From positions 1 to 31,912 of the IMG/VR virus record IMGVR_UViG_3300012347_000581: DNA of 31,912 nt; one strand, 5' to 3'. Position numbers and translations under genes: made by a program. Position 1 is the stretch's first letter. Every line of letters begins with the position of its first letter. Below are positions 2,362 through 31,912 of the stretch, one piece after another. The notes under the pieces were generated by a model, which was not told where the DNA came from, ran no database searches, and saw only the letters and a list, made by a program, of their open reading frames with translations. The stretch comes from a virus. Taxonomy: Duplodnaviria; Caudoviricetes.

Positions 2362-2367
2362 GACTTG

Positions 2368-2374
2368 ATAAATA
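2368..2374 (+). promoter_or_regulatory. T4-late-like promoter (ATAAATA)
   Basis: ATAAATA ends 5 nt before ATG 2380; the same motif precedes other putative late genes. Confidence 0.5.
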
Positions 2375-2379
2375 GCTGC

Positions 2380-3075
2380 ATGAATACTAATATATCAATA
2401 ATACCTGTTTTTATCGGATACGATCCGCGAGAAGCTATCGCATATCATGTATGTACTAACAGTATAATCCGACACTCGAGTCAACCTATATCACTAACTC
2501 CTCTGGCATTACAAACACTACAAGGGTATCAAGAAACGCATACTGACGGTAGTAATCAATTCATTTATTCTAGATTTTTAGTCCCACACTTAACTCAATA
2601 TAATGGTTGGGCAATTTTTATGGATGGAGATATGATTGTTCGAGAAGATTTAACTAAATTATGGAATCTTAGAGACGATACAAAAGCAGTAATGGTAGTC
2701 AAACATAGTTATCAAACAAAAATGGCTGAAAAATATCTCGGTGCAAAAAATGAAAATTATCCAAGAAAGAATTGGTCTAGCGTAATTTTATGGAATTGTA
2801 ATCACCCTAGCAATAAAGTAGTTACACCGGAGCTAATTCAACAGTCTACTGGATCGTACTTACATCGATTTTCTTGGTTAACTGACAACGAAATTGGAGA
2901 TTTACCAGTTGAGTGGAATTGGCTACCAGACGAATTTGGGCCAAACCCTAATGCAAATTTACTCCATTATACGCTAGGCACTCCTAGTTTTTTAGAGTTT
3001 ACAGATACTCCAATGGGAAATGAATGGCATCGAGAACGAATTTACACTAATTACTGTTTACAGCGAATTATATGA
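2380..3075 (+). CDS. Glycosyltransferase, GT-A fold
   Basis: VFIGYD, F-YSRFLVP, DxD (FMDGDM), NWSSV, LHYTLGTP. Confidence 0.8.
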   Translation: MNTNISIIPVFIGYDPREAIAYHVCTNSIIRHSSQPISLTPLALQTLQGYQETHTDGSNQFIYSRFLVPHLTQYNGWAIFMDGDMIVREDLTKLWNLRDDTKAVMVVKHSYQTKMAEKYLGAKNENYPRKNWSSVILWNCNHPSNKVVTPELIQQSTGSYLHRFSWLTDNEIGDLPVEWNWLPDEFGPNPNANLLHYTLGTPSFLEFTDTPMGNEWHRERIYTNYCLQRII

Positions 3076-3863
3076 TTTTTTTAAGTAAAGACGCATCCGA
3101 CGAGTATGTTAATATGTGTGCTGCGGGGTGCAACACACTACCGACAAGTATTGAAAATTTTGTGTATGAAGATAACTTTGAACCGTTAGTATTAAGAGGT
3201 ATTCTCAAACATAAAATAATGAAAAGATGTTGGCAAGATAATCGAACATTTTTTTATATAGATACTGGTTATTTCGGAAATGAAAAGTCTAGCACAAATC
3301 CAAACGGGTGGAAATATTGGCATAGAATTGTAAAAAATAATCTTCAACATACTAATATAATTCCTAGGCCTGACGACCGATTTAAACAATTTAATAAGCA
3401 ATTTACACCTTGGAAAAAATCTGGAAGATCTATTTTAATAGCTGCTCCTGACGAAAAACCTTGCAAATTTTACGGTATATCTAAAGACGATTGGGTTAAT
3501 CAAACAGTCGATCAGCTCAAAAAATTTACAGATCGACCAATTATTGTAAGAGACAGAGCTCCTAAGCGCATTGATAGAATAGCAACAAATACTTTGCAAA
3601 GTGCGTTGAACAACGACGTATTTGCATTAGTAACTTATAACAGTGTTGCTGCAATCGAATCGATATTTCACGGTATACCAGCATTTACATTAGCACCAGT
3701 AAATGCAGCTAGCCCAGTGTCGCTACAAGATTTAAGCCAAATAGAAACTCCATATTATGCAGATTATGATAAATTATATGCATGGGGGTGTCACTTGTCG
3801 TACGGACAGTTTCACATATCAGAGTTAAAAAACGGCAACGCATTTAAAATTTTAAAGGACTAA
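3072..3863 (+). CDS. Capsule-biosynthesis-like (KpsC/KpsS-type) putative glycosyltransferase
   Basis: YIDTGY; DRPIIVR; C-terminal VTYNSVAAIESIFHGIP; paralogous to 4537 and 13092. Confidence 0.55.
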   Translation: MIFLSKDASDEYVNMCAAGCNTLPTSIENFVYEDNFEPLVLRGILKHKIMKRCWQDNRTFFYIDTGYFGNEKSSTNPNGWKYWHRIVKNNLQHTNIIPRPDDRFKQFNKQFTPWKKSGRSILIAAPDEKPCKFYGISKDDWVNQTVDQLKKFTDRPIIVRDRAPKRIDRIATNTLQSALNNDVFALVTYNSVAAIESIFHGIPAFTLAPVNAASPVSLQDLSQIETPYYADYDKLYAWGCHLSYGQFHISELKNGNAFKILKD

Positions 3864-4562
3864 ATGAATTTACACTTTGTAACTAGCATATCAAAAGAAT
3901 ATTGGTATAGTACAGCTAGATTTTGCATTAATACTTGGGACTTACCAGGAACAGTTACTGTGTTTGTTGATCAAAAAGATGGCGACTTAACATGGATTTC
4001 GGAAATTGTAGCAGACAACATCGTCCTGTTAGATGTTCCAGCAATTAACACTCCTGAACACAAAAGATCTAAAGTTAGAAAATTTTGGGGCAAAGCATAT
4101 TCTCAAATTGTCGCAATTAGATCACGCGGATTGAATGAACGAATTATATGGGTTGATTCGGATGTTGAGCAAATTGATGTAGCCGATGCAGAATTATTTA
4201 ATTTCGAATTCGCAGAACCGTTTGCTATATTAAATTCCGAAGATGCCGAAGACTGTTGGGAAACTGGAATTGTATTATTTAATCAACAATACGGAAAACT
4301 AAATCAACTAATAAAAAGATACGAACGATCATGGCACGACGACGATTTTTTATCGTCATTATGGAGACCGTACGATACACAAGTACTCGGTGACATTGCT
4401 TTAGATAAGGGATTCTTAAATTTATGCGATGCTAAATGTAAAAATGTTAATGCATTAGAAAATAGTCGGTATTCGACTGCATTTAAACATTGGATTAACA
4501 AAGATAATAAAAAACTACTTTCAGATATACAACTCAATGACAACAGTAGCGATTTATCATAA
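3864..4562 (+). CDS. Putative nucleotide-sugar transferase (GT-A)
   Basis: KFWGK...IIWVDSD (DxD), ETG, YD; paralog of 11860-12669. Confidence 0.6.
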   Translation: MNLHFVTSISKEYWYSTARFCINTWDLPGTVTVFVDQKDGDLTWISEIVADNIVLLDVPAINTPEHKRSKVRKFWGKAYSQIVAIRSRGLNERIIWVDSDVEQIDVADAELFNFEFAEPFAILNSEDAEDCWETGIVLFNQQYGKLNQLIKRYERSWHDDDFLSSLWRPYDTQVLGDIALDKGFLNLCDAKCKNVNALENSRYSTAFKHWINKDNKKLLSDIQLNDNSSDLS

Positions 4563-5472
4563 ATCAGTCCCTAATGCAAAAAGCCAAGAAAAGATAGATT
4601 TATTAAATTTTTTCTCACAAGGTGTTTCAGTAACTGGTGATGTTGCTATAAATGTTAACGACTACAACTATCAATTAACTGATGTTGGAGTTATTCAAGG
4701 ATGGGTACATACAGGATCTAAGTCAGGCCTGCACTTACAACTGCGAAATCAAGTAGTTCAATCACAGCTATTAGCAAAAAAATATGTAATAGCTGTTGAT
4801 AGTAATTTGTTTTTGTATGCAAATACATTAAATCCTATGCACTATCTTCGATATAGTTTCAATGGAGTGTTTCCAAATACTGGAATTTACTGCGATACGT
4901 TAGTCGACCCTACTCGATGGCAAACTATTAGTAAAGATCTCGGTTTAACTTTAAAAGATTATCGAACATCGGGGGACCATATTTTATTGTGTTTACAGCG
5001 TAATGGCGGTTGGAGTATGGGTTCAGTTGATGTACAAGACTGGGCAATACAGACTATTAATTCACTGCGTAAAGTTAGCGATCGTACAATAATAATTCGT
5101 CCACATCCCGGAGATAAAGCTAGTAAAGAATATCTTAATCCTGCTAATCCGAAATGTAAAATTAAGTTTTCTAAGCGAGTTAGATTAAGTACTAACCCGC
5201 ATTTAGTTGACGATTTAAAGAATTGTTGGGCAGCTGTAAATTACAATTCTAGTTCAGTAGTCGGGGCAGCAATAGAAGGTATTCCTATATTTGTAACAGA
5301 TTATACAAAGAGTCAATGCATTGAAATTGCAAATACAGATATTACACAAATTGAGAATCCGGTATTGTACAATAGACAGCAATGGGTTGAACGATTAAGT
5401 ATGTTCCATTGGAATTTTAACGATCTTAAAACTGGAAAATGCTGGGCACATATGAGATCATTTATACAGTAA
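4537..5472 (+). CDS. Capsule-biosynthesis-like putative glycosyltransferase
   Basis: IRPHPGD and YNSSSVVGAAIEGIP motifs. Confidence 0.55.
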   Translation: MTTVAIYHKSVPNAKSQEKIDLLNFFSQGVSVTGDVAINVNDYNYQLTDVGVIQGWVHTGSKSGLHLQLRNQVVQSQLLAKKYVIAVDSNLFLYANTLNPMHYLRYSFNGVFPNTGIYCDTLVDPTRWQTISKDLGLTLKDYRTSGDHILLCLQRNGGWSMGSVDVQDWAIQTINSLRKVSDRTIIIRPHPGDKASKEYLNPANPKCKIKFSKRVRLSTNPHLVDDLKNCWAAVNYNSSSVVGAAIEGIPIFVTDYTKSQCIEIANTDITQIENPVLYNRQQWVERLSMFHWNFNDLKTGKCWAHMRSFIQ

Positions 5473-6285
5473 TAGCTGTTCAATAGAGTAGAGTTTTTGC
5501 ATATAAGTTGACGGATTAGTTAATACACTTGACTCTAAATCACCGACTCTTCTTGGACGCTCAACAACTTCGAAGTTACAATTATTTACATGTTTAAAAA
5601 TCTCAATCATTTCTTTAACTGAGGTTCCTACTCCGTGCCCTAGATTTTCTATTGTTCCAGACGGAGTAGCTATTCCTTTAGCAATACCGTTGCAAATTTC
5701 ACTTACATGTGTATAATCACGAATACACGTTCCGTCTTTAGTATTATAATCTACTCCATATAAGTTAAATACGCCAGTTTTCTTGGCGTTAAGTAAACAT
5801 GCTAATAGTGTGTCTTTTCTCATACCGGCACCTGTAGTACCAGTAACATTATAAAATCTAAAAATAGTAAATGCAATATCATTTTCTTTGCAATATTGCG
5901 CAACAATATCTTCGGCCATCCTTTTAGATATCCCATACGGACTTCCCAGTCCTGCCGCTGACCCAGTAGATGCTAGTATAAAATTTTGAGTTTTAATATT
6001 TTTAAGCACATTTAATGTACCTAATACATTGGTAACATAATATAGTGCAGGGTTTAATACACTTGGACTAACAGATACTTCGGCAGCAAGATGCACAACT
6101 GCTTCATACTCGGTTGATATGCCCCAACTCGAATCATCAACTATATCTTTGTTGATGAATGTATGCACTGGTATTGCTGGCAATTGCTTATCTAAACCAT
6201 GTATTTCTACAGATTGATTAGATAATAACTCTGTAAGGTGGGACCCAATATAGCCGGCATTTCCGGTTATTAATATTTTACTCAT
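5458..6285 (-). CDS. NAD-dependent epimerase/dehydratase (GalE-like)
   Basis: GNAGYIG, HLAA, YGISK (YxxxK), RFYNV, DGTCIRDYTHV. Confidence 0.9.
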   Translation of the reverse strand: MSKILITGNAGYIGSHLTELLSNQSVEIHGLDKQLPAIPVHTFINKDIVDDSSWGISTEYEAVVHLAAEVSVSPSVLNPALYYVTNVLGTLNVLKNIKTQNFILASTGSAAGLGSPYGISKRMAEDIVAQYCKENDIAFTIFRFYNVTGTTGAGMRKDTLLACLLNAKKTGVFNLYGVDYNTKDGTCIRDYTHVSEICNGIAKGIATPSGTIENLGHGVGTSVKEMIEIFKHVNNCNFEVVERPRRVGDLESSVLTNPSTYMQKLYSIEQLLLYK

Positions 6286-7102
6286 TTATAAATGCTTTTA
6301 ATTCTTTAAGTTGTGTATCATAATCAGCAATATTAAAATTAAAATCAGTCCTAGTATTGACCAAGATTTTATTAACTGGTTTGTCACTAGCAGTCTGCAC
6401 AACTGTTTTCTTTAACTGAAAAATTTTATTAATTTTCGTTAGTAGTGTAAACTTATCAATAGTGTTATCGTTACTAACGAGATGATAAACTCCGCTTATT
6501 ACTGGGTTTTCGACATACTGAACAATGCACTTTGCTAGTTGTAACGTTGTAATTCCGTTCCACAATACATTATCCCAACCGTTTATTGTTTTGCTGGTAT
6601 TGTTAGATATCCAGTTGAATAACCCTGTTCCTGCTTTCTTAAGTTCGGGTCCTATGATACTAGTCCTGAATGTAATATCTTTAGCATTATTAATTTCACC
6701 GTGTGACTTTGATAAGCCGTATGGGTTAGTTTCGGTATGAGTCGCTGTTTCGATATAATTTCCTACTTTGCCATCAAACACACAATCAGTTGACAAGTGA
6801 ATAAGTTTTGTAGTGGTATCTTTTAACTTATGCTCAACAAACAACGGAAACCACGAATTAATAATGTCAGCTCGTGTTGGATTATCGATGCTATCTTTAA
6901 CTAATAATCCAATGCAATTAATTATAAAATCGCAATCAGGCATCTCTTCAAAAAATTTATGAACTGCAAGAATATCTTCAACATTAAGTAAATAATCAGC
7001 ATTAGATTTTGCTACAGTAATCACTTCGTACTTTTGCAATTTAAGATATTGAGTTATAATATGACCGGCCATACCATTAGCACCTAATATCATAATTTTC
7101 AT
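6278..7102 (-). CDS. RmlD-like NDP-4-keto-6-deoxyhexose reductase
   Basis: GANGMAG, HLSTDCVFDG, YGLSK, RTSIIG. Confidence 0.88.
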   Translation of the reverse strand: MKIMILGANGMAGHIITQYLKLQKYEVITVAKSNADYLLNVEDILAVHKFFEEMPDCDFIINCIGLLVKDSIDNPTRADIINSWFPLFVEHKLKDTTTKLIHLSTDCVFDGKVGNYIETATHTETNPYGLSKSHGEINNAKDITFRTSIIGPELKKAGTGLFNWISNNTSKTINGWDNVLWNGITTLQLAKCIVQYVENPVISGVYHLVSNDNTIDKFTLLTKINKIFQLKKTVVQTASDKPVNKILVNTRTDFNFNIADYDTQLKELKAFINE

Positions 7103-7827
7103 ATAGTATCCTTTGTATTAATTAGTGTATTTAACTTGTGAGATTCGACAAATTTTGCAATATTTTGTAAACCGATATGTTGTTTAGTTTTATTAGTTGA
7201 TGCAGCACTGTCGTGAATTCTTACTGAAGTTAATCCTTGATTAATACCACCTAGTATATACTTAGAAGTTAGTAAAATCCATAAGCATACATCTTCTCCT
7301 ATGCTAAATTCTTCTGGAAACTTGTTTTCTTTAAAGATAGCAGTTAACCCCATAACAGTAGGAGTTGCAATTTTACACTTGTTGATAATTTCTGGAAACA
7401 CATTACCGTGTAGCTTACCGGTTCCTTTTATATCAAACAACTTGCCGTCAGAATTAATTTTATTATACGAAGTATGGCTTAATGCTAAGTCGTTTAGCTC
7501 CATAAATTCAATTTGAGTTTTTAATTTATTAGGCAAAAATAAATCATCTGAATCTAAAAATGCAATATATTTTCCAGTTGCATGCAAAATTCCGGTATTT
7601 CTAGCTTTAGCAGGGCCTGCATTTTCTTGGCGAAGATATACAATTCTATTATCAGTAGTACACAGGTCGATTAAATCTGTTATATCTTCAGTTGAACCAT
7701 CATCAATTAACAATAATTCAAAATTATTATGAGTTTGAGACAATACGCTACGAATCGATTCAATGGTCCAGTCGACTCTATTAAAAAATGGCATTATCAC
7801 TGATACTTTAATATCGGTATAGCTCAT
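7099..7827 (-). CDS. GT2 glycosyltransferase
   Basis: SVIMP, IDDGSTE, NAGPAKARNTG, FLDSDD, GED. Confidence 0.92.
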   Translation of the reverse strand: MSYTDIKVSVIMPFFNRVDWTIESIRSVLSQTHNNFELLLIDDGSTEDITDLIDLCTTDNRIVYLRQENAGPAKARNTGILHATGKYIAFLDSDDLFLPNKLKTQIEFMELNDLALSHTSYNKINSDGKLFDIKGTGKLHGNVFPEIINKCKIATPTVMGLTAIFKENKFPEEFSIGEDVCLWILLTSKYILGGINQGLTSVRIHDSAASTNKTKQHIGLQNIAKFVESHKLNTLINTKDTI

Positions 7828-8804
7828 ATAAATTTTCCAGCAGTTAGCATAATTTTAATTTCTGATTTATTCATTATTTTAGTCTTTGATGAAAACTCGG
7901 TATATGGAAATTTGTCGAGATCTTTATATTTGTTAATTAATTCGTCTGAACAATTAACTGGCAAAGTTACAAAATAATCAGGACCATAACTATAAGACAA
8001 TACAGCTTCGTGTTCGGAAATTAGCATTTCGTCAAGCTTTTCTCCAGGACGAGTACCAGTTTCGACGATGTCGACGGTACCATAATGATCCATTAGCACT
8101 TCAGCTAAATCAGTAATGTAGCAAGCTGGCATATTCATTACAAACGTTTCTCCGCCGATGCTATCTGTCGATGCTTTAAACAACAAATTAATAGCTTCTT
8201 CTAACGTTAAAAAGAATCTAGTCATTTGTTTGTTAGTGATAGTAAGAGGACCACCATTTTTAATTTGTTCTACAAAAAACGGAATAACAGAGCCGTTCGA
8301 ACCCATAACATTACCTCCTCTCACACACACAAATTTAGTAGTATCTGATAACGTATTTGCCTGAATTATTAATTTCTCGCCTACTGATTTAGTCATTCCG
8401 TACAAGTTGAGAGGCTCAACAGCTTTATCAGTTGATACGTCAATAACCTTTTTAACTTTATTCTCAATAGCAGCATTTACAACATTCGTTGTACCTATAA
8501 TATTAGTTTTAATTGCTTCTTGTGGATGATCTTCACAAATAGGTACATGCTTTAGTGCAGCTAGATGAAAAATATAATCTACATTTTTAGTAGCAAATTT
8601 GACAGCATCTATATCTCGAATATCGCCAATTATGAATTTAATTTTATTATTATTAAATTTTCTCTGCATTAGAACTTGTTGGAGCTCTCCTCTAGAAAAA
8701 CAAATAATTTCTTTTACATTGTAGTTCTCTAATAACAGTCGAGTTAGTGTTTGTCCCCACGACCCAGTTCCGCCAGTTATTAAAATTCTTGATCCGTTAA
8801 ACAT
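7824..8804 (-). CDS. fnlA: UDP-GlcNAc 4,6-dehydratase (WbjB/FnlA/CapE family)
   Basis: GGTGSWG, AALKHVP, STDKAV, YGMTK, GNVMGSNGSV, MTRF, RPGEKL. Confidence 0.85.
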   Translation of the reverse strand: MFNGSRILITGGTGSWGQTLTRLLLENYNVKEIICFSRGELQQVLMQRKFNNNKIKFIIGDIRDIDAVKFATKNVDYIFHLAALKHVPICEDHPQEAIKTNIIGTTNVVNAAIENKVKKVIDVSTDKAVEPLNLYGMTKSVGEKLIIQANTLSDTTKFVCVRGGNVMGSNGSVIPFFVEQIKNGGPLTITNKQMTRFFLTLEEAINLLFKASTDSIGGETFVMNMPACYITDLAEVLMDHYGTVDIVETGTRPGEKLDEMLISEHEAVLSYSYGPDYFVTLPVNCSDELINKYKDLDKFPYTEFSSKTKIMNKSEIKIMLTAGKFI

Positions 8805-8812
8805 AATTTTCC

Positions 8813-9883
8813 TTAATTTGATAAAATAATACTAACAACTGTATCTGAAACATTGTCTTTTGTATACTCTAATGGTATACTCCAATCTGTCGATTTCACT
8901 TTCATTAATTGATAGCATCTTAGTATGCTTTCGGTAGTTAATCCACTAACAACATTTGACCCGCACCAAACAGTCTCTGGTCTTTCTGTAGTTTCTCGTA
9001 TAGTTATAGTCGGTATATTAAATAAACACATTTCTTCTTGAACAGTCCCGGAGTCACTAATTGCCATGATGCTATTTTGTTCTAATTTAACAAAATCGAA
9101 AAACCCTAGTGGTTCAGTAATTATAATATTTGGGTTTTGCACATTAATATTAAATTTTAATAATTTTTGCTTCGTCCTAGGATGACAACTAAAAATTATT
9201 TTATATTCCTTAGATATCTCTTCAAAGCTGTTAAAAATACTAAGCAGTCGTTGATCATTATCGACATTTTCTGCTCGATGCGCAGTAGCAATAATGTACT
9301 TATTTTTCTCAAGGCCTAATGTGTTTAAAATAGAAGATTGTTGGATTTCAGCATTGTAATATGTTAGTACTTCTTTGATTGGATTTCCAGTTACTAAGAT
9401 TTTATTGTTTGGAATATTTTCTCTTAATAAATTTTGTCTACTTAATTCAGTATAAGGTAAATTTATAGTTGATATAGAGTCTATTATTTTTCTATTTTTT
9501 TCTTCTGGAACTAGCAAATCATAGCATCGATTCCCGGCTTCCATATGATATACTGGAATTCCTAATCTTTCACATATTATTGCCGAAAGCCCTGAATTAG
9601 TATCGCCTAATATTAATACTCGATCTGGGTTAAATTCTGATATACATTTTTCAACACCTACAAACGTATTACCTAATTGCTGTGCAAAACTGGAATTAGT
9701 ATTACTAATAATATAATCCGGTTTTCTTATGTTTAATTGATCAAAAAATATATCGTTTAAATTCTGATCGTAATTTTGACCAGTATGTAATATTTTGTGA
9801 TTACATAATTTGTCTAACTTTGGAATAATTCTAGACAATCTAATAATTTCCGGTCGAGTTCCTAATATTGTTAATATTTTCAT
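8813..9883 (-). CDS. fnlC: UDP-HexNAc 2-epimerase (WbjD/FnlC type)
   Basis: GTRPEIIRLS, HTGQNYD, LGDTNS, HMEAGNRC, PEE-NR, SDSGTVQEE, TERPE. Confidence 0.88.
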   Translation of the reverse strand: MKILTILGTRPEIIRLSRIIPKLDKLCNHKILHTGQNYDQNLNDIFFDQLNIRKPDYIISNTNSSFAQQLGNTFVGVEKCISEFNPDRVLILGDTNSGLSAIICERLGIPVYHMEAGNRCYDLLVPEEKNRKIIDSISTINLPYTELSRQNLLRENIPNNKILVTGNPIKEVLTYYNAEIQQSSILNTLGLEKNKYIIATAHRAENVDNDQRLLSIFNSFEEISKEYKIIFSCHPRTKQKLLKFNINVQNPNIIITEPLGFFDFVKLEQNSIMAISDSGTVQEEMCLFNIPTITIRETTERPETVWCGSNVVSGLTTESILRCYQLMKVKSTDWSIPLEYTKDNVSDTVVSIILSN

Positions 9884-10407
9884 TTTTGAAAATACCCTAC
9901 AAAGTAGTGCTGTAACTTAGGTAAACGAATTTCAGTCCAATCTAAGAAATCATCTTTGCTCCACATACTTTTATGTAAGTCGTATGTATTGTTAAAACAC
10001 CATAACGACGGATCGTCGACATGTTCGTGATTTTGCGTCCATATTGTTTCTAACGGTGTAAGTATAAAAATCTTTTTATTAACTAGTTGTTTACACTGTT
10101 CAATAATAGTTTTACCATTTGCTTTATCAACATGTTCGATAAAATCAATCATTAAAATATAGTCAACTGGTTCAGATATTAATGATTTTAGACTTGTTTT
10201 TTCTAAGTCGGCAAGAATATCAGGGTGAACTTCACTCCATGCATCAATTGTTATTACATTACTAGCAATTTCTAAAAATGGAGAAGAATACAATTTTGGA
10301 CCGCACCCTATATCTAATAACGAACACTGGGGTTCTATGTTATCTTTTAAATATTCCAATAGTGCGTCATTAGAATACGCTAATTTTCCGTTTATGATAT
10401 GTTTCAT
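9880..10407 (-). CDS. Class I SAM-dependent methyltransferase
   Basis: LLDIGCG motif I; DFIEHV. Confidence 0.8.
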   Translation of the reverse strand: MKHIINGKLAYSNDALLEYLKDNIEPQCSLLDIGCGPKLYSSPFLEIASNVITIDAWSEVHPDILADLEKTSLKSLISEPVDYILMIDFIEHVDKANGKTIIEQCKQLVNKKIFILTPLETIWTQNHEHVDDPSLWCFNNTYDLHKSMWSKDDFLDWTEIRLPKLQHYFVGYFQK

Positions 10408-11186
10408 TTTAAATTTAAATAGTGGTTGTGTTCAGCACGAATGTGCCCAGATTCGTTGATTGAGTAAAACAATGATTTATTGTTAACACTAATTGGGGGG
10501 TTATTGGGATTTATTAATTTATCATGATACTGATGAATAACATACGGCTCAGCAACAAAAGTAATTGGTAATTTTAAGTTTTTAATTCTAACAAGTAATT
10601 CATCGTCGTCATATTCGTATCCGTTTGCAAATCGTTCGTCAAATCCGTTTAGTTTAACTAGATTGGCTCGTGTGATAGCCGCTGTAAAATGATAGCCTTT
10701 AGATCGATGCTCGACATGATTGTACCACCATGACATTTTTTTCTTACCGTGCCCTGTTGCATTTGGTACAATAGTATCGCCTGAATGCAATCTAGCAGTA
10801 TCAGCCGAATCAGTTGCGTAACAGTGAAACGTAAGATAATTGTTGTCGGTTAAATTAGCACGAGTGTATGCAATTACATCTCCGATATGACAACATTCGG
10901 GATTTTGTAAGATAATTTTATCGCCACTACAATAGGAAAATCCAACATTAAATGGTACACACGGATTATAGTAAGTCTTTGTTGGACCGATTATATCAGC
11001 CATTTTAATAATTTTAAAGTTAATTGACGGAAATTCTAAAGGAATAGAATCTAGCTGATGTGCAGTATCGCTAAAGTCGTCGACTATTACTACTTCGAAA
11101 TTTGTATCTGTAGTTTTTAAAATTGAATTTAACGTAAATCTTAAATGATGAATTCGGTTATAATATGCTGTTACAATTGAAATCAT
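10404..11186 (-). CDS. GT2 glycosyltransferase with GT7-like C-terminus
   Basis: ISIVTAYYN, IVDDFS, NGFDERFANGYEYDDDEL, HQYH. Confidence 0.85.
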   Translation of the reverse strand: MISIVTAYYNRIHHLRFTLNSILKTTDTNFEVVIVDDFSDTAHQLDSIPLEFPSINFKIIKMADIIGPTKTYYNPCVPFNVGFSYCSGDKIILQNPECCHIGDVIAYTRANLTDNNYLTFHCYATDSADTARLHSGDTIVPNATGHGKKKMSWWYNHVEHRSKGYHFTAAITRANLVKLNGFDERFANGYEYDDDELLVRIKNLKLPITFVAEPYVIHQYHDKLINPNNPPISVNNKSLFYSINESGHIRAEHNHYLNLK

Positions 11187-11869
11187 TGATTATCCTTATA
11201 AGTATTCCAAAATTTTGTTCTAGTTAAACTAGATTTACCATTTAATTTAGTTAATGCAATTCCCATAATGTAATTATGCAATTCTATAGTTACTACTTTT
11301 GCATTAATTGCATTATCGGCCGGTAAAAAAGTATTGTTATATGTTTCTAGTAATTTTTTAGCTGCATGCGGTTTTATGGCATATCCGCAACATCCGGGCA
11401 TTGACGAGTGAGTATACTCGATAGCTGCAGGCTTGCCATCTGGGTTTTCTAAGTATTTCATCCAATTTGGACTTTTCTTTGGATGCCCTAACGCAACAAT
11501 TAATACATCTTTCCATTCAATTGGTGTATACGGCCTAGATAAGACAATATCGTCTTCAAATATTAGAATTGGTTCGTTTAACTCCACACATTTCTCCCAT
11601 AGTCTGTAATGACTATAAAAGCACCCTTTGATACCAGGAGTTTGCATTTTTTCTAATGCAGGATTAGATAAATCAAACGTACCTTTAATGCCTTCGTGAT
11701 GTAATGCTCTACCTTCTGAGAGCATTTGTTGTGCGGCATCTACCCCGTATGTACCTTCAAACAATTCAACCGGCATGTTAAACTTTTCTAACTGTTCTTT
11801 TAAATTTAGTGCAGTCTCTAATGACGGGGCAATTTTTGATAAATGAATAATAAAACTTTTCATTTCCAA
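11183..11869 (-). CDS. GT25 family glycosyltransferase
   Basis: GCFYSHYRLW, IFEDD, GYAIKPHAAKKL, PAD; start may be the second Met (11863). Confidence 0.85.
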   Translation of the reverse strand: MEMKSFIIHLSKIAPSLETALNLKEQLEKFNMPVELFEGTYGVDAAQQMLSEGRALHHEGIKGTFDLSNPALEKMQTPGIKGCFYSHYRLWEKCVELNEPILIFEDDIVLSRPYTPIEWKDVLIVALGHPKKSPNWMKYLENPDGKPAAIEYTHSSMPGCCGYAIKPHAAKKLLETYNNTFLPADNAINAKVVTIELHNYIMGIALTKLNGKSSLTRTKFWNTYKDNQ

Positions 11870-12669
11870 TATGCCTCATTTCTTTTTACTGTTAAATCTT
11901 TATCTAGACTTCGACCTGCTGATTTTCGATTACCTTTTAAATGATCTAAATATGCACCCCATTGACTATTAATCAACGGATGCCCTTCACCCTTTATAAT
12001 CCCAGCACTCCAATTTTGCTGTTTCATAGTTGGAAACTTATGTCGAACTGCATCGAATACAAAGCTGTCATGCCATTCTTCTAATTGAAAAATACCATCT
12101 TCGGCTTGGTCATAAAATCGTTTAAACTCTTTTAAAAATTCTAAAACAATTGGCGATTTTAAATTCATTGCATACAATCCGCATTCAGAATACTTACCTT
12201 CTCTGCCTAAGTATGACAAATCTGCACTAGCTGTACATAACGCAGACACTGCATTAAATGTAACAGGACTGTGACACACAGTATCGGCATCCATCCATAA
12301 TAAAATATCAGCATCAGTCCGTGCCGCGCAGTCAAAAATTGCATATACTTTGTGAGCAAATCGAACAGCATCCCATTTAAAGCCTTTGCCAGAATCTTTT
12401 CGTTTTGATCGAATCGGATCTAATGATACGTCTCCGTTTGCTTTTGGAATATCTTTCCATTTGGTTTTAAAATTAGTGAGATCACTAACTGTATCTAAAT
12501 CAATTGTAATAACTTGATTTGCATCGGGAATATGTGGAGTGCATTTTTCCGGATATACATATAGTGATACTTCTTTTGGCCAGTTGGCGCAAAATGTATT
12601 AATCATACGTTGACCGTATGTTTCTAACCCTTTTTTGTGAAAGGTTGTTACTACTGCAATTTTTGTCAT
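11860..12669 (-). CDS. Putative nucleotide-sugar transferase (GT-A)
   Basis: RFAHKV, LLWMDAD, SECG, WHDSFVFD, DHLKG; start at MTKIAVV overlaps the upstream stop. Confidence 0.7.
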   Translation of the reverse strand: MTKIAVVTTFHKKGLETYGQRMINTFCANWPKEVSLYVYPEKCTPHIPDANQVITIDLDTVSDLTNFKTKWKDIPKANGDVSLDPIRSKRKDSGKGFKWDAVRFAHKVYAIFDCAARTDADILLWMDADTVCHSPVTFNAVSALCTASADLSYLGREGKYSECGLYAMNLKSPIVLEFLKEFKRFYDQAEDGIFQLEEWHDSFVFDAVRHKFPTMKQQNWSAGIIKGEGHPLINSQWGAYLDHLKGNRKSAGRSLDKDLTVKRNEAYWK

Positions 12670-13061
12670 GATGGGATCCATTTCTGCATACGCTTAAAGA
12701 TTTCTACTAACGAATAACTCTCCGATCTAAAATATAAATAATCTTCTGCAGAAAGGGAATCTGCACCTTCAGTAAATATAATAGGCCGATAGCTAGTCCA
12801 TACGGGTTTTAATTTGCTTAAATTTGAGAAATGAGAATGATCTATAAATATAAAATCAATATCGGGAAAGATATTTACATCTTGAAAACCTTGTCTATGT
12901 ACAACATTTTTAAATCTCACTGATGGGTCGACTGCATCAATAACAAATACTGTACCGCAATGGGCTATTAGATCAGGTAAATACCCTAATCCAGATCCTA
13001 CCACTAAACAATTGCGGCAGCTAGACGACGATTGTAATATTCTTTTAGAAAATTTGCTCAT
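12666..13061 (-). CDS. Hypothetical protein (possibly degenerate Rossmann/methyltransferase-like)
   Basis: 131 aa, LVVGSGLG; first gene of the minus-strand operon. Confidence 0.65.
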   Translation of the reverse strand: MSKFSKRILQSSSSCRNCLVVGSGLGYLPDLIAHCGTVFVIDAVDPSVRFKNVVHRQGFQDVNIFPDIDFIFIDHSHFSNLSKLKPVWTSYRPIIFTEGADSLSAEDYLYFRSESYSLVEIFKRMQKWIPS

Positions 13062-13080
13062 TTTAATTAACTACTTACAT

Positions 13081-13087
13081 TATTTAT
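13081..13087 (-). promoter_or_regulatory. T4-late-like promoter (ATAAATA) for the minus-strand glycan operon
   Basis: TATTTAT in the 30-bp divergent gap. Confidence 0.45.
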
Positions 13088-13091
13088 CGCT

Positions 13092-13937
13092 ATGATTTCT
13101 TTCAAACTTTACCGTGAATACGGTGCATTAAACAGTTCGCCAGTATTTGACGCATTCCAGCAAGGGATAAAACACACTGGAAACAGTATTGTTGATTTGG
13201 ACGAGGATGTAGCTGTAATATGGTCTGTTCTATGGAAAGGTCGAATGCACGGTAATTTATCAGTGTATCAATCTAGAACTACAGCGAACAAACCTACTAT
13301 TATTATCGAAGTTGGTAATCTTATTAGAGGAAAAACTTGGCGTATAAGTATGCACAATGTTAATCGATTAGGATACTTCGGAAATACTACCCAGTTAGAT
13401 TGCAATCGCCCTGCTACGCTAGGAGTAACTCTTAAAGACTGTAACACCCATAGAAATTCAGAAATATTAATTACAGGGCAACACGAAGCTAGTTTACAGT
13501 GGTCCGGATTACCATCTACTGCAGAATGGGTAACTAATTTAGTTACACAGCTACGTCGCTATACAGATCGGCCTATAAAGTTTCGACCGCACCCGCGTTC
13601 AAATATTAGTGTATCAAATTTAGCAATCGATTACCCTAAAAAAATATCAGGCACATACGACGACTATAATATGAATTATAACTATCATTGTATTATTAAT
13701 CATAACAGTGGTCCAACAGTGCAATCTGCTATCAACGGAACTCCGATTATTTGTCACTCATCTAGTCTAGCATTTCCAGTTAGTGATATGGTTGGAAACA
13801 TTGATAACCCAGTGTTATTAGATAGATCGGCTTGGTTTTTAGGACTATGTCATACTGAATGGACTGTTGATGAAATTGCATCTGGTATCCCATTACAACG
13901 TTTAATTCCAACAATTAATTCATACCTTACCAGTTGA
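13092..13937 (+). CDS. Capsule-biosynthesis-like putative glycosyltransferase
   Basis: IEVG, FRPHPR, NHNSGPTVQSAINGTP, EWTVDEI. Confidence 0.55.
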   Translation: MISFKLYREYGALNSSPVFDAFQQGIKHTGNSIVDLDEDVAVIWSVLWKGRMHGNLSVYQSRTTANKPTIIIEVGNLIRGKTWRISMHNVNRLGYFGNTTQLDCNRPATLGVTLKDCNTHRNSEILITGQHEASLQWSGLPSTAEWVTNLVTQLRRYTDRPIKFRPHPRSNISVSNLAIDYPKKISGTYDDYNMNYNYHCIINHNSGPTVQSAINGTPIICHSSSLAFPVSDMVGNIDNPVLLDRSAWFLGLCHTEWTVDEIASGIPLQRLIPTINSYLTS

Positions 13938-24013: not shown

Positions 24014-24919
24014 ATGTGTATAATAATTGGCAAATACTTTGAAAAGCATGGATGGGTCGCTGTTAAAAACAGGGACCGCAATTACATCCCAGATATTAGT
24101 TTTAAGAAAAAAATCACCAAAGGTGTGGAAATTCTATACTTTTGGGATGATATAACTCAATATTGCGAAGGAATGAATTCTGCAGGAGTTGGTGTACTTA
24201 GTGCTAGTTTAATGGTACTCGATGACGAAAAAGAAATTGAAGTTCGTACTAAAACTCCTAGCAAAGACGGCTCTAAAATTAAAAAAGCATTAGAGCAACC
24301 TAATGTAAAATTAGTTGCTGCAAGTTTAATTCAACAAAAGTTAACCGGCAATACTTTAATTTTTGATGCCGAAACTATGATTTTATTAGAAGGTGCTTGG
24401 ATTAAAGGCGGTTATAAAAATGAAGAATTTGAATACAAAGTTAAAGTAATTCCAAAAGATGAAACTGTTGTTAGAACAAATCACGGAGTATTGCTGTCTA
24501 GGGCAGGTTATCAACGCACTACTGACGACGAAGCACAAACCCTTAGTCGTATAAGCTCTGAAAGTAGAAAGCTAATTGCAGAAATTGTAGTTATGCAATC
24601 TGAAGATCCAGAAGACATAATTGACGGACTAACCAAGAATTTTACTGATAACGGACAAATGAATGCATTACGCACTAGTACTGAAAAGAAAAAAATGCGA
24701 ACTACTAGTCAAATAATGATTATTCCAAAAGAAAAAACAATGTATGTTCGTCCAGTACAAAGCAATATGCAATTTAATTTTTGGGAATTAAATCGACCTA
24801 CACAGCAAACATGGGTTGAGATTTTAAGCAATCGAGTATTGTACGCAAATCTTAAAAATTTAGATCCAGGTGATGATCCACCGTTCGATTATAAATTAAC
24901 ACACAACATAATAAAATAA
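24014..24919 (+). CDS. Ntn-hydrolase-like protein (NRDE/C45-like)
   Basis: Cys at position 2, KNRDR, EGMNSAG, RTNH. Confidence 0.6.
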   Translation: MCIIIGKYFEKHGWVAVKNRDRNYIPDISFKKKITKGVEILYFWDDITQYCEGMNSAGVGVLSASLMVLDDEKEIEVRTKTPSKDGSKIKKALEQPNVKLVAASLIQQKLTGNTLIFDAETMILLEGAWIKGGYKNEEFEYKVKVIPKDETVVRTNHGVLLSRAGYQRTTDDEAQTLSRISSESRKLIAEIVVMQSEDPEDIIDGLTKNFTDNGQMNALRTSTEKKKMRTTSQIMIIPKEKTMYVRPVQSNMQFNFWELNRPTQQTWVEILSNRVLYANLKNLDPGDDPPFDYKLTHNIIK

Positions 24920-27604: not shown

Positions 27605-27807
27605 CCCAAAATGGTTCTGCTACGGTAAAAATTTGGGCGCGCAAAAATTTTAGAACAGTACTTAACGTGGTGGTCTGGTGATTCTACAGCAACGACACAG
27701 TGATTCTACAGTAAGTACACAGTACCCAAAAGGGTTTGCGGGGGTAAAAAACTGGGCGCGTAAAAATTTTAGGATGAGTACTTTTCTTTTCAAGGTGGTG
27801 ATTCTAC
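27605..27807 (+). repeat. Imperfect direct repeat, ~120-bp period
   Basis: CCCAAAA..GGTAAAAA..TGGGCGCG.AAAAATTTTAG..AGTACTT..TGGTGATTCTAC from 27605 and 27725. Confidence 0.8.
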
Positions 27808-27809
27808 AC

Positions 27810-27837
27810 TACAGTGTTGTAAAAATACAACACTGTA
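27810..27837. repeat. Perfect 12-bp inverted repeat
   Basis: TACAGTGTTGTA-AAAA-TACAACACTGTA. Confidence 0.85.
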
Positions 27838-27880
27838 TGTATATATAGCCCCCCACCCAACCTTACAGCAACCTTACAAA

Positions 27881-28230
27881 AAGCTTGCAATTGCTTGCAA
27901 ATGTTTGCAAAAGCTTGCATTGCAAATGCTAACAAAAGCTTGCAAAAGCTTGCAAATGCTAACAAAAGCTTGCATTGCAAAAGCTTGCAAATGCTAACAA
28001 AAGCTTGCAATTGCTTGCAAATGTTTGCGTTACAAAAAATTACAAGATGTTACAAAACATTACACTTTGTTACATTACAATTACATTACACTTTGTTACA
28101 ATACGCAACACTTTGTTACATTACAATTACATTACACTTTGTTACGCTATGCAATACGTTGTTACATTACAATTACATTACATAACCTTACATTTTGTTA
28201 CAAAACATTACAATATAAAAAGCTTGCAAT
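27881..28230 (+). repeat. GCTTGCAA ~10-bp repeats followed by a TTACA pentamer array
   Basis: Read directly; second copy at 30150-30420. Confidence 0.9.
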
Positions 28231-28592
28231 TGTTTGCATACACTTGCAAATGTTTGCGTGTTGTTTTATTGCAACATATACTTGCATAGTGTTTTTTATA
28301 CAGCGTATTTTGCACAATAGCTTTTAAACGTGTTTTAAGCACGTTTTTAGCGTGTTTTTTGTGTAGTGCATAGCAAAGTATACATTTAACAAAAAAACGC
28401 TTAAAACGCGTTTTTTACTAAAATACTTGCAAAAGCTAACAGTAAACACAGTGCAAGTATTTGCAAACATTTTGTAAGTTTGTTGTAAGCTAATAATTTA
28501 ATAATATAAACAACAAAGCAGTTTTAATACTATTTGTAGCGTGTTGCAAGTACACGTACTAGTACGCTTTTAGCGTACACACTAATTGTAAT

Positions 28593-28854
28593 ATGCAAAA
28601 TGCTTGCAAATGCTTGCATTAGCAAAAAACAGTAAAAAGTGTGTTATAATACAGTTATGTAAGCAGTTTTAATACTATTACAAGCGTGTTGTAATACACG
28701 TACTAACTGTTTTATGCAAAATGCTTGCAAATGCTAACATTAGTATAAAACAGTAAAAATTGTGCTATAATAAGCACTATGCAAAGCAGTTTAACTACTA
28801 TTTGCAAGCGTGTTGTAATTACACGTACTAGTATGCTATTAGCATACACACTAA
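28593..28854 (+). promoter_or_regulatory. Two tandem extended -10 promoter plus hairpin units
   Basis: TGTTATAAT 28642-28650 and TGCTATAAT 28763-28771, 121 bp apart, with shared flanks. Confidence 0.7.
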
Positions 28855-28905
28855 TGTATTATGCTAGTAGCGTATATTTTGTAACTTTAACTTTTACTTT
28901 ATATT

Positions 28906-29238
28906 ATGCAAACTAACACAAACAACGTTTTTGCGCACGTTTTTACGCAATTAGCTAACACAAGCAACGCAGTTGCAAGTAATAGCAATAAAAAGTACAC
29001 TGTTGCAGGTATTAGCACACTGCCCAATGGTGAGACTAAAGTACGCTTAGCTAACAACTTGCGTGATAGGATTGGGATTTTGCGTAGGAATGGACACAGC
29101 AATATTATGCTTATGCAGTTGGAGAGTGCAATGACGGAAGCAGAAGTAGCAGCTTACTTGTTGACAGTGGATTTTGGTACAGACGACTTTAATGCAGTAG
29201 TTAAAGCTAATGCAGTAAAATTGGGCGTAAGCAAGTAA
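28906..29238 (+). CDS. Hypothetical 110-aa protein, paralog 1
   Basis: ~86% aa identity to 31213-31545 with many synonymous differences. Confidence 0.9.
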   Translation: MQTNTNNVFAHVFTQLANTSNAVASNSNKKYTVAGISTLPNGETKVRLANNLRDRIGILRRNGHSNIMLMQLESAMTEAEVAAYLLTVDFGTDDFNAVVKANAVKLGVSK

Positions 29239-29249
29239 TGTAATACAAC

Positions 29250-29293
29250 GTAACATACACGCAAGTGTATGTTACGTTTTATTTTTATTTTTA
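29250..29293 (+). terminator. Intrinsic terminator
   Basis: GTAACATACAC-GCAA-GTGTATGTTAC plus T runs. Confidence 0.8.
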
Positions 29294-29346
29294 TAAATTC
29301 GGGCACGGGTAGCCCTCCTCTTAGGTGGCAGCGATACTTGTAGCGG

Positions 29347-30138
29347 GCAGCGGGGCCGAAGGCGAAGGTATTAGACTCTCCGTCCTGCCAACCTGCATCT
29401 GCCAATCTGCCTACACCTTCACCGTCTCCTATACCTACATCGCCTCCTGCACCTACTACGTCTTCTACACCTACTACGTCTTCTACACCTACACCTAGTT
29501 CTGTGTCTTCTACACCGCCTGTGTCACTACTATCGCCACCGCCGCCTGCATCGCTGTCTGCTCCACTACCGTCCGCCCAACCAACCAACCCCGCAGCGGG
29601 GCCGAAGGAGATTGTGGCTCCTGTCTGTGTCCTCCTCGCACCAATCGCTTCCTACTATCAACCAACACCACCTGTCTAGTCTAAACAGTCAAACCAATCT
29701 GCCAATCGCTAATATAGAGCAGCGGGGCCGAATGCGGCTGTGGCTGGTAGATTGTGGCACCTGTCACCGTCCAGGTCTGTCGCATAACCTGTCACACCAA
29801 TGTCTCCTAGTTAACCTGCGTCCGCCAGGCACGTCGCAGCGGGGCCGAAGGAGAAGGAGACAGGTAGATTGTGGCAGGTAGATGGTAACAGGCGAGGTTG
29901 GAGAATAGGCGACCAGAGCGAGGCGAGGTTGGAGAATGATTGCCCTCCACCGCCTCCGAGTCCTGGTTGCCTGCCTTCAGATCATTCTCCGATTCGGCCG
30001 GCACGTCGCAGCGGGGCCTTTGCAAATGCTTGCAAATGCTTGCATATGCTTGCATTACAAAAAGTTACACTTTGTTACACACTGTCGTCGCTCTGCTAAC
30101 CAGTCGTCTGTCTTCTCGCGTCGGCCTGCAGCGGGGCC
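29347..30138 (+). repeat. Array of the exact 11-mer GCAGCGGGGCC with strand-polarised spacers
   Basis: Copies at 29347, 29593, 29719, 29836, 30008, 30128 (7th at 31825). Confidence 0.95.
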
Positions 30139-30744
30139 TTTGCATAGTCTTGCAAATGCTTGCAAATGCTTGCATTACATTTTGTTACACTTTGTTACAA
30201 AACATTACAGTACGTTACGTTACACTTTGTTACAATACGCAACACTTTGTTACATTACAATTACATTACAAAAAGTTACAGCGTCTTACACTTTGTTACA
30301 TTACAATTACATTACAAAAAGTTACGTTATGCAACAAAAAGTTACATTACAATTACATTACAAAAAACAACACTTTGTTACAAAACATTACAATATAAAA
30401 TACTTGCAAACGCTTGCAATGTTGTATTTTTGTAACGCCACTTGTCTGCAAGCTTTTGCAAACTGTTGTTAGCTTTTGCAAACAGTGCTAAAACGTGTTT
30501 TAAGCTGTTTTTTATTAAATGTATATGCTACTATGCACTACGCAAAAAACACGCTAAAAACGTGCTTAAAACACGTTTAAAAGCTATTGTGTTTTTGCTT
30601 GCAGTAAAATGCACAATGCAGCATTTGTTTAGTGTTAGTATTTGCAAGCTTTTTGTAAGTTTGCTGTAAGCTAGCAGTGTAATAATACAGTTATGCAAGC
30701 AGTTAAGTAGTTTACTAGTTAGTTGCTTGCTATACGCTACAATA

Positions 30745-30877
30745 CAAAATGCTTGCAAATGCTTGCATTAGTAAAAATAGCAAAAAAGTGTGCTACAATA
30801 GCACTATGTAAGCAGTTTTAATACTATTACAAGCGTATTGCAATATACGTACTAGTACGCTTTTAGCGTACACACTA
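30745..30877 (+). promoter_or_regulatory. Extended -10 promoter plus double-hairpin unit
   Basis: TGCTACAAT 30791-30799; flanks homologous to the 28593-28854 units. Confidence 0.65.
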
Positions 30878-30928
30878 TGTAAGCGTTAAAAGCGTATATT
30901 TTTAAAACTTTAACTTTTTAATAATATT

Positions 30929-31114
30929 ATGCAAAAAAATGCAAAAACTGTTGTGCATACAAGTGCTAACAAAAACTTTAGTGTGTTATTAGTTAATAAT
31001 ACAGTAGTATTAACTAACATTAACATTGTAATGTTTAGTAACACGTATAGTACACGTAAAGCAGCACGTGCAATGTTTACAGCTTTTAAGTATTACACAC
31101 TTAAAATTAAGTAA
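30929..31114 (+). CDS. Basic 61-aa protein with no D, E, G, P or W
   Basis: Same TTTAACTTT...ATATTATG leader and downstream GCAA hairpin as the 110-aa genes. Confidence 0.65.
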   Translation: MQKNAKTVVHTSANKNFSVLLVNNTVVLTNINIVMFSNTYSTRKAARAMFTAFKYYTLKIK

Positions 31115-31143
31115 CATAACGTAATGTAAGTAAGTAACGTAAT

Positions 31144-31173
31144 GTAACATACACACGCAAGTGTGTATGTTAC
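31144..31173 (+). terminator. GCAA-loop hairpin (weak terminator or processing stem)
   Basis: GTAACATACACAC-GCAA-GTGTGTATGTTAC; no U tract. Confidence 0.55.
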
Positions 31174-31212
31174 TATTACACAATGTAGCAATTTTAACTT
31201 TAAAGTAATATT

Positions 31213-31545
31213 ATGTCAAATACAAATAACGCGTTCGCCCATGTTTTCGCCCAATTGTCCAACACTAGCAATGCAGTTGGTAGTACGTCCAACAAGAAGT
31301 ACACGGTTGCTGGTATTAGCACACTGCCTGGTGGCGGCGAGACGAAGGTGCGCTTGGCGAACAACTTGAAGGATCGCATTGGTATCTTGAGGAGGAACGG
31401 ACACACGAACATTATGCTTATGCAATTGGAGAGCGCGATGACGGAGAGCGAGATTGCAGCGTACTTGTTGACTGTGGACTTTGGCAGCGATGAGTTTAAT
31501 GCGGTTGTGAAGGCTAATGCTGTTAAGTTGGGCGTTAGCAAGTAA
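31213..31545 (+). CDS. Hypothetical 110-aa protein, paralog 2
   Basis: Paralog of 28906-29238. Confidence 0.9.
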   Translation: MSNTNNAFAHVFAQLSNTSNAVGSTSNKKYTVAGISTLPGGGETKVRLANNLKDRIGILRRNGHTNIMLMQLESAMTESEIAAYLLTVDFGSDEFNAVVKANAVKLGVSK

Positions 31546-31557
31546 TGTAACGTAATG

Positions 31558-31590
31558 TAACATACACACGCAAGTGTGTATGTTATTATT
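31558..31590 (+). terminator. GCAA-loop hairpin/terminator
   Basis: TAACATACACAC-GCAA-GTGTGTATGTTA then TTATT. Confidence 0.6.
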
Positions 31591-31620
31591 ACAATTTTTA
31601 ACAATTAATTGGAGAATGAT

Positions 31621-31743
31621 ATGGAAGAGTTCGGATTTGAGATTGTGCTGTGCACGGTGGCTTTTGTGTTAAGTTGGGCGGCAGCTGAGATGACGGTGAT
31701 GATTGCAACACACGAGGCGGAACAGCGGGGTGGTGAAGAGTAA
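31621..31743 (+). CDS. Small (40-aa) putative membrane protein, not in the ORF track
   Basis: GGAG RBS at 31611; MEEFGFEIVLCTVAFVLSWAAAEMTVMIATHEAEQRGGEE; terminator follows. Confidence 0.6.
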   Translation: MEEFGFEIVLCTVAFVLSWAAAEMTVMIATHEAEQRGGEE

Positions 31744-31747
31744 GAGG

Positions 31748-31767
31748 AGGGGGCGTGAGCCCCTTTT
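31748..31767 (+). terminator. Intrinsic terminator
   Basis: GGGGC-GTGA-GCCCC-TTTT. Confidence 0.7.
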
Positions 31768-31912
31768 CTGTTGGCTGGAAGAGGGGTGGTGTGCCCTCCA
31801 CACGTTCGGCCGAGCTTGTACTGCGCAGCGGGGCCGGTGGAGAAGGAGACAGAATTCTCTAACCGCCTCCACCGCCTCCACCGCCTCCACCACTGTCACT
31901 TCCGCTAGTGTT

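Follow-up and report, generated by a model that had tools for sequence, protein, structure and literature searches.

A polar 11-bp motif and one-strand GA/GG avoidance in a jumbo phage fragment: a putative terminal-repeat or packaging site

What is the role of a short sequence that recurs, always in the same orientation, at points where a phage genome changes the strand on which it avoids certain dinucleotides? The question arises from a 31.9-kb fragment of a jumbo phage genome (hereafter the window, meaning the whole stretch of DNA analysed, 31,912 nucleotides in length), which encodes SSB, UvsX, UvsY, UvsW, a primase, a helicase and sugar enzymes. The helicase shares 50% identity with those of PA5oct/Paride and Atu_ph07 and 69-89% identity with those of the best 80 of 530 IMG/VR loci, and the source of the window, as judged from sequence, is a PA5oct/Paride-like jumbo phage. 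Searches for closer relatives gave chance matches or none, apart from one contig, and no RNA holder was listed for the window region. Elsewhere in the window, 2365-13937 is an island of ~14 glycosyltransferase, epimerase and unassigned genes that include a UDP-GlcNAc 2-epimerase, and 24014-24919 gives a weak match to a C45 autoproteolytic acyltransferase/hydrolase (E 2e-4, far under the cut-off).

In what follows, GR denotes the steps GA and GG, YC denotes TC and CC, and a desert is a region nearly without GA, GG, TC and CC on both strands. The initial annotation held that the repeated sequence, GCAGCGGGGCC, is a protein-binding site at which GR-only and YC-only strands switch. We judge the chances to be evenly balanced that this 11-mer is a polar, putative site for a terminal-repeat or packaging protein, with one-strand bans on GA and GG likely serving to keep a DpdA-made modification off chosen strands.

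A motif scan verified seven exact copies in the same orientation at the positions first reported, all on the + strand and none on the - strand of the whole 31.9 kb, where a local second-order Markov model expects ~0.001 copies. Allowing up to two mismatches added no further site across the 31.9 kb.

29347-29357, + strand: 11-mer copy 1, ~70 nt past the terminator of the 110-aa gene; its first base is A in 2 of 4 runs
29593-29603, + strand: 11-mer copy 2, exact match
29719-29729, + strand: 11-mer copy 3, exact match
29836-29846, + strand: 11-mer copy 4, exact match
30008-30018, + strand: 11-mer copy 5, followed by TTTGCA and a double-strand desert, a context shared with relative L286
30128-30138, + strand: 11-mer copy 6, which opens desert 2
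31825-31835, + strand: 11-mer copy 7, first in a second cluster that likely runs on past the window end

The spacers between copies are irregular (106-235 nt), and their helical phasing in the window is unclear (R 0.03-0.60 over periods 10.2-10.6, n=5, not significant). A CRISPR array or a structured ncRNA was considered and rejected in view of the irregular spacers, the lack of any Rfam match above noise and folding z values of -1.8 to +1.8. Misassembly of the six-copy cluster is likewise ruled out. Logan contigs from four runs of four studies cover all 30 bins, a single contig reaches across 28779-30243, which holds this cluster, and the region is covered in all four runs. A joint from 31912 to 29571 (39 letters, motif included) was recovered in 4/4 runs, with another motif context just beyond the window end. 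A unit of ~2.3 kb (desert, promoters, 110-aa gene and motif cluster) occurs twice, at 27860-30000 and 30008-31912, and loose contig ends in the four runs hold more desert and motif modules beyond the window.

All five intervals for which a strand skew had been quoted were verified by dinucleotide counts, and three of them are non-coding strips:

29376-29597, + strand: non-coding strip, GR-free and C-rich (GR 0, YC 55)
29618-29716, + strand: non-coding strip, GR-free (GR 0, YC 23)
29847-29942, - strand: non-coding strip, GR-free bar one exception (+ strand GR 30, YC 1)

The remaining intervals hold GR 6 and YC 0 (29730-29757) and GR 8 and YC 0 (31836-31854). In flanks of 30 nt, the skew flips across the motif from GR 13 and YC 44 upstream to GR 34 and YC 15 downstream (p=0.002 against random local positions); in flanks of 50 nt the downstream skew is gone (41/41, p=0.05). 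The upstream flanks had been described as dense in YC and lacking GR. The absence of GR stands, but the upstream flank of copy 29347 has no YC skew (GR 4, YC 2), and YC density stays within base composition, with Y before C in 55 of 98 cases at fY 0.70. Dense modification as a selected feature therefore has no support beyond composition; the real signal is that one strand has no GR at all (0 of 27 G, P=6e-5), in strips that are rich in C and poor in G (99 C vs 27 G). The seven copies and this one-strand ban are seen in four independent runs, and among strain variants that create a GR or YC step (24 of 40 listed variants tested; 207 overall), 9 of 10 match the local polarity. An acidic ORF on the - strand (29154-29588) was rejected as probably a by-product of the ban; the other strips are not 3-periodic by eye, and a 19-nt deletion is present in 2 runs.

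The region also contains two deserts and a pair of paralogous genes:

27873-29008, both strands: desert 1, bar 2 exceptions; it holds repeats, and promoter-like sites of the extended -10 type at 28642 and 28763
30149-31216, both strands: desert 2, with a promoter-like site at 30791 and a 61-aa ORF (30929-31114) free of GR and YC
28906-29238, + strand: 110-aa early-region gene with a GR-free template (YC 2 observed vs 14.9 expected from synonymous codons)
31213-31545, + strand: paralog of the 110-aa gene, its template GR-free only from 31386 (YC 14 vs 16.0 overall)

The promoter-like sites of the deserts (28602-28775, 30742-30800) have an extended -10 element, TGnTATAAT, and lack TTGACA, which would violate the ban. 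No Shine-Dalgarno sequence precedes the 110-aa gene. A fold comparison of its product found nothing convincing (best Z 4.5, T7 Gp2, within noise), and the product resembles uncharacterised phage proteins only. In relatives, a number of small early genes combine good ribosome-binding sites with message strands free of YC (0 vs 15.5 expected), which goes beyond codon choice. Most early genes have normal GR templates, and so do those PA5oct repeat genes that are transcribed at 5 min (PMC7318152). In Paride, the tRNA-cluster promoters carry TTGCAA within a double desert, and other double-strand GR/YC deserts show no recognisable promoter consensus (L260 110598-110746, 136250-136409 and 148340-148482; L261 185405-185509). 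At L066:4556-4790, a YC-free + strand faces an open frame on the - strand, the reverse of the usual polarity; this stretch is probably non-coding and is a possible exception.

The specificity of the ban was assessed with eight symmetric dinucleotide sets in the window, Paride, G024, G023, Phosso, Vibrio 2.275.O, Atu_ph07 and CBB. GR/YC alone is under a strong ban in the window, in Paride and in the near-complete relative G024; this ban is absent from Atu_ph07 and CBB, which lack the DpdA-like enzyme described below. In G023, Phosso and Vibrio 2.275.O, which do encode the enzyme, there is little or no ban and deserts are weak or absent.

In G024, the enzyme is a 514-aa protein with the catalytic motif GDSGGxQ and a predicted TGT-type transglycosylase fold (model pLDDT 92.8); all 50 listed Foldseek matches of the model are TGT, the best at E 2.4e-7. 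Homologs occur in G023, G005, G013, G021, the PA5oct group, Phosso and Vibrio phage 2.275.O; none was found in the partial genomes G003 and G026, and the gene is absent from the window fragment. The family is missed by Pfam TGT, PHROG and NCBIfam, and PDB sequence searches returned nothing; 7,506 matches at E<=0.001 were obtained among 8,000 candidates scored. The precursor-pathway genes FolE, QueD and QueE are present in G023, G024 and Paride, and in Vibrio phage 2.275.O the DpdA-like gene adjoins QueF, QueC and FolE. The Pfam scan of G024 took in 335/403 ORFs; no canonical QueC is linked there, and only a weak partial match was found elsewhere. In G024 the DpdA-like gene lies at L247:2804-4348 and a GT-B-like gene at L247:7127-8230, beside FolE, and both have counterparts in Paride that are 41-44% identical. 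The resemblance of this conserved neighbour to GT-B glycosyltransferases comes from ESM and is a lead only, with glycosylated deazaguanine as a possible product.

Given that relatives encode a TGT-fold DpdA-like enzyme together with FolE, QueD and QueE, GR likely carries 7-deazaguanine, and we hold with good confidence that the G of GR is modified in these phages. We infer the GR context from dinucleotide avoidance; known DpdA contexts are GA and GGC for CAjan and GA for iggy (PMC7544227, PMC10484667, PMC10516641). The proposal of a strand-specific modification pattern thus gains from this enzyme, from its precursor genes in relatives and from the GR-free templates, while its chemistry is a prediction.

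How far does the motif extend beyond the window? Counted in related genomes, it was found in 11 of 22 helicase-selected records, with 0 for the reversed-pattern control, and by this sequence survey the 11-mer is conserved over a large clade of freshwater jumbo phages. No exact copy is present in Paride/PA5oct, Phosso, Atu_ph07, CBB or Vibrio 2.275.O. All related copies lie on the helicase strand, bar one stray each in G013 and G024; these strays (G013:14982, G024:143170) are exact motifs on the - strand inside the DpdA-like gene, where they encode Gly-Pro-Ala, and may be due to chance. At 78 loci a motif pair is spaced 191-221 nt apart, and 0 of these loci have a reverse copy. The near-complete G023 holds 4 exact copies at 349-358 kb, within 8.6 kb, and G024 holds 5 at 315-329 kb, within 13.7 kb, in addition to its stray. 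In both, a three-copy cluster edges a ~20-kb block dense in TTGACA-N17-TATAAT (sigma70) promoters, with one or two single copies inside. The relatives' cluster is non-coding and sits where gene direction diverges, and copies have been gained and lost at homologous positions.

Early genes of the relatives, including nine homologs of the window 110-aa gene, run antisense to the helicase; the window 110-aa gene runs in the sense of the helicase while the motif strand is unchanged, and hence motif polarity is independent of transcription. In this argument, the helicase link depends on assembly through the 28.0-28.7 kb repeats, which no contig among those listed crosses, and the link to the 110-aa gene does not.

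The claim that the motif marks a switch from YC to GR fared less evenly. It describes the window, and its upstream half is retained by relatives: among 145 copies from 47 de-duplicated relatives (11 of 58 loci without leftward promoters were dropped first, and several of 20 further candidate loci are chance pairs in coding sequence), the upstream 30 nt average GR 1.34 vs YC 3.17. Downstream, the GR-only flank is not conserved (GR 2.92 vs YC 2.81 for the same copies), and in L286 a lone motif lies within a 1.27-kb double desert with unskewed flanks. The neat YC/motif/GR pattern is therefore an elaboration of the window lineage. The positional evidence belongs to the opposite, GR-to-YC switch, which is located between copies.

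At that switch, relatives share an inter-copy element composed of GTGG, a GAGG-like word and an A-run, and second spacers are convergent in 35 of 42 cases. Distances from motif to element at 38 loci group at 126-129, 137-139, 147-150, 158, 167-168, 180, 188-189 and 197-198 nt, which corresponds to strong phasing (n=38, R=0.77, period 10.2; 0/3000 jitter nulls) that persists when only distinct values are used (n=20, R=0.66, p=0.0003). Phasing also links the element to the next motif (R=0.56, p=0.0003); these counts are inflated by kinship among genomes. Among 28 loci, the first early promoter has its -35 at 6 nt (8 loci), 18 nt (12) or 27-28 nt (5) from the first copy, a relation whose phasing fails on distinct values (p=0.24); motif-to-motif phasing also fails beyond the selected range (p=0.47). 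Repeated polar boxes in fixed helical geometry are seen in the relatives (R=0.77) and are not evident for the window copies. Strict conservation, fixed polarity and this phasing in relatives uphold the prediction that the 11-mer binds a protein.

Evidence from genome ends bears on what such a protein may do. PA5oct has a 39,080-bp direct terminal repeat (1-39080) with early genes read by host RNA polymerase, as given in PMC7318152 with its PhageTerm supplement and in GenBank. Placed on Paride, the repeat ends fall at 158529 and 197463, the fifth- and top-ranked positions in 287 kb for a GR-to-YC switch; YG and TG control sets also rank high at these termini, such that part of the signal may be G/C skew. 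Both CBB termini are unranked, and the predicted ends rank 39 and 28 in G023 and 34 and 7 in G024, whose ends are predicted near 309.6 kb and 328.56 kb. A GenBank 'CRISPR' repeat of Paride (158126-158490, L261) is the GR-only strip lying immediately beyond the left end mapped for PA5oct and is likely a false call.

In the window, the top GR-to-YC switches are at 27,817-27,847 and 29,375, and the former terminates a composite element:

27725-27860, + strand: left-boundary element (A-tract, GCGC, A-tract, GAGTACTT, GGTGGTGATT, C-run), ending in the top GR-to-YC switch of the window

Of 80 helicase loci, 43 reach far enough to show this element and 22 match it, in every case on the helicase strand. 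Contig depth to the right of ~27.8 kb is higher by a median of 1.6-1.7x in 4/4 runs, based on contig means only, with ratios of 0.6-2.5; a long direct terminal repeat would give roughly twofold depth. From the top switch, the conserved boundary element and the depth step, we infer that the terminal repeat of the window would start near 27,850, and that the other repeat end of relatives would be the element inside the motif cluster. The window copies are 1.5-4 kb inside the predicted repeat, away from its predicted end (~27,850), and a regular expression for the right-end element gave 0 matches in the window, although this pattern is loose and also misses the copy of G024 itself. By analogy, the motif may be tied to termini through the type of switch they share, the mapped ends being those of PA5oct, which lacks the motif.

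Among the roles first suggested, terminal-repeat definition or packaging fits best, and injection-stop fits worst because motif polarity tracks the helicase strand regardless of which way the early genes are transcribed. A replication origin or iteron-like primosome-loading site, possibly one that copies the terminal repeat, would give forks leaving the motif GR-free leading-strand templates both ways. The non-coding location of the relatives' cluster at the divergence of gene direction, a polarity that follows the helicase and majority strand even where the early block is inverted, the YC/motif/GR geometry of the window and an adjacent phased promoter that could give a primer are all agreeable to this view. 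We nevertheless regard it as unlikely: relatives have not kept the GR-only flank downstream, a terminus-type switch element has the tightest phasing with the motif, single copies are dispersed through the early region, and neither an AT-rich unwinding element nor an initiator was identified. The origin and packaging readings would overlap should copying of the repeat be primed at this site. We give still less weight to an operator at which a phage protein would activate or repress early sigma70 promoters. An operator would explain why, at 25 of the 28 loci measured, the first cluster copy precedes a -35 by 6, 18 or 27-28 nt, and why several single copies lie 6-10 or 24 nt from a -35, but orientation relative to transcription is reversed in the window and L286, only a few of ~25 early promoters carry the 11-mer, and the remaining cluster copies have no promoter.

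Two other explanations appear quite improbable to us. A recombination signal akin to Chi, or a nick site on one strand for processing or protecting the linear ends, would account for strict polarity, confinement to the end region and the turnover of copies at homologous positions, and motif-linked nicks are reported from some phages (PMC11780129). Against it, eleven invariant bases with helical phasing suit a multi-site complex more than a scanning enzyme, and Chi sites are 5-8 nt long. Alternatively, the skew may concern YC and not GR, reflecting Rho utilisation sites or a footprint of cytosine-directed damage or modification, with the motif shielded from transcription. The C-rich, G-poor strips accord with this, as does the fact that mRNA strands of early genes are the YC-free strands; Rho prefers YC. 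However, YC is not above composition, the ban is absolute and spans untranscribed promoter DNA on both strands, relatives encode an enzyme that exchanges G, and the Pfam scan of 335/403 G024 ORFs revealed no cytosine methyltransferase or TET family.

Returning to a terminal-repeat or packaging site, we can outline how the parts might operate. A DpdA-like enzyme would, with good probability, exchange G for 7-deazaguanine at GA and GG, perhaps followed by glycosylation. The adduct would, somewhat less surely, hinder host RNA polymerase on incoming DNA, which would call for unmodified promoters and, for the first genes, unmodified templates. At the virion ends, the 5'-ending strand would be bare and the 3'-ending strand modifiable. 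A protein on phased 11-mers may wrap or bend DNA and make the switch the place where the DNA is cut or the repeat is copied, a step to which we assign an even chance. In the window lineage, the early block is inverted and the motif-switch module is multiplied inside the predicted repeat, so that its seven copies would be loading sites and not the cut site. Only tentatively do we extend this to guanine hypermodification as a hard-wired strand code, in which bare templates order gene reading, and switches together with the phased 11-mer array delimit the terminal repeat for packaging; the chemistry would then possibly be glycosylated 7-deazaguanine made by the new DpdA family and the GT-B enzyme.

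Comparable architectures are known. Lambda cosB has R sites for terminase recognition. SPP1 pac has several contacts that flank the cut, and P22 pac is 22 bp and asymmetric, as described in PMC7672466. The present sites share with these systems several polar, non-palindromic boxes in fixed helical geometry around a predicted cut. They differ in that the 11-mers are 60-280 nt from the element, with singles also kilobases inside the repeat; in belonging to a jumbo phage with a long terminal repeat, for which neither a small terminase (TerS) nor any other binding protein for the 11-mer was identified; and in having a cut region marked by a strand switch in a dinucleotide ban. With PA5oct they share the phage group (helicase 50% identical), a promoter-rich early block, a boundary GR-to-YC switch, GR/YC deserts and the DpdA-like gene; PA5oct and Paride differ in lacking the 11-mer, and the accessible portion of the PA5oct paper (PMC7318152) does not mention switches, deserts or the enzyme. 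Like phage DpdA systems, the relatives have the TGT fold, the DSGGxQ catalytic motif, FolE/QueD/QueE and a G-purine context, but theirs is a divergent family of ~510 aa with a conserved GT-B-like neighbour (by ESM, a lead only). Moreover, anti-restriction is the role described for DpdA, whereas in the present case the target is avoided on a strand-by-strand basis. In the literature covered, which left out most subscription papers and for which the 11-mer was not a search term, we found no description of a motif role, of deserts or of end switches.

To our knowledge, the way in which phages of the T5, SPO1 and PA5oct types delimit and copy their long terminal repeats is unresolved. The 11-mer is a candidate cis-site whose geometry can be measured across dozens of related genomes, and the sequence signature coincides with both mapped ends of the cultured phage PA5oct. 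The DpdA-like family is unannotated and is present in cultured phages, including therapy candidates. The findings suggest that an anti-restriction base modification puts constraints on how the genome is designed and may also serve as a signal; if the strand-code reading is true, genome ends would be predictable from sequence.
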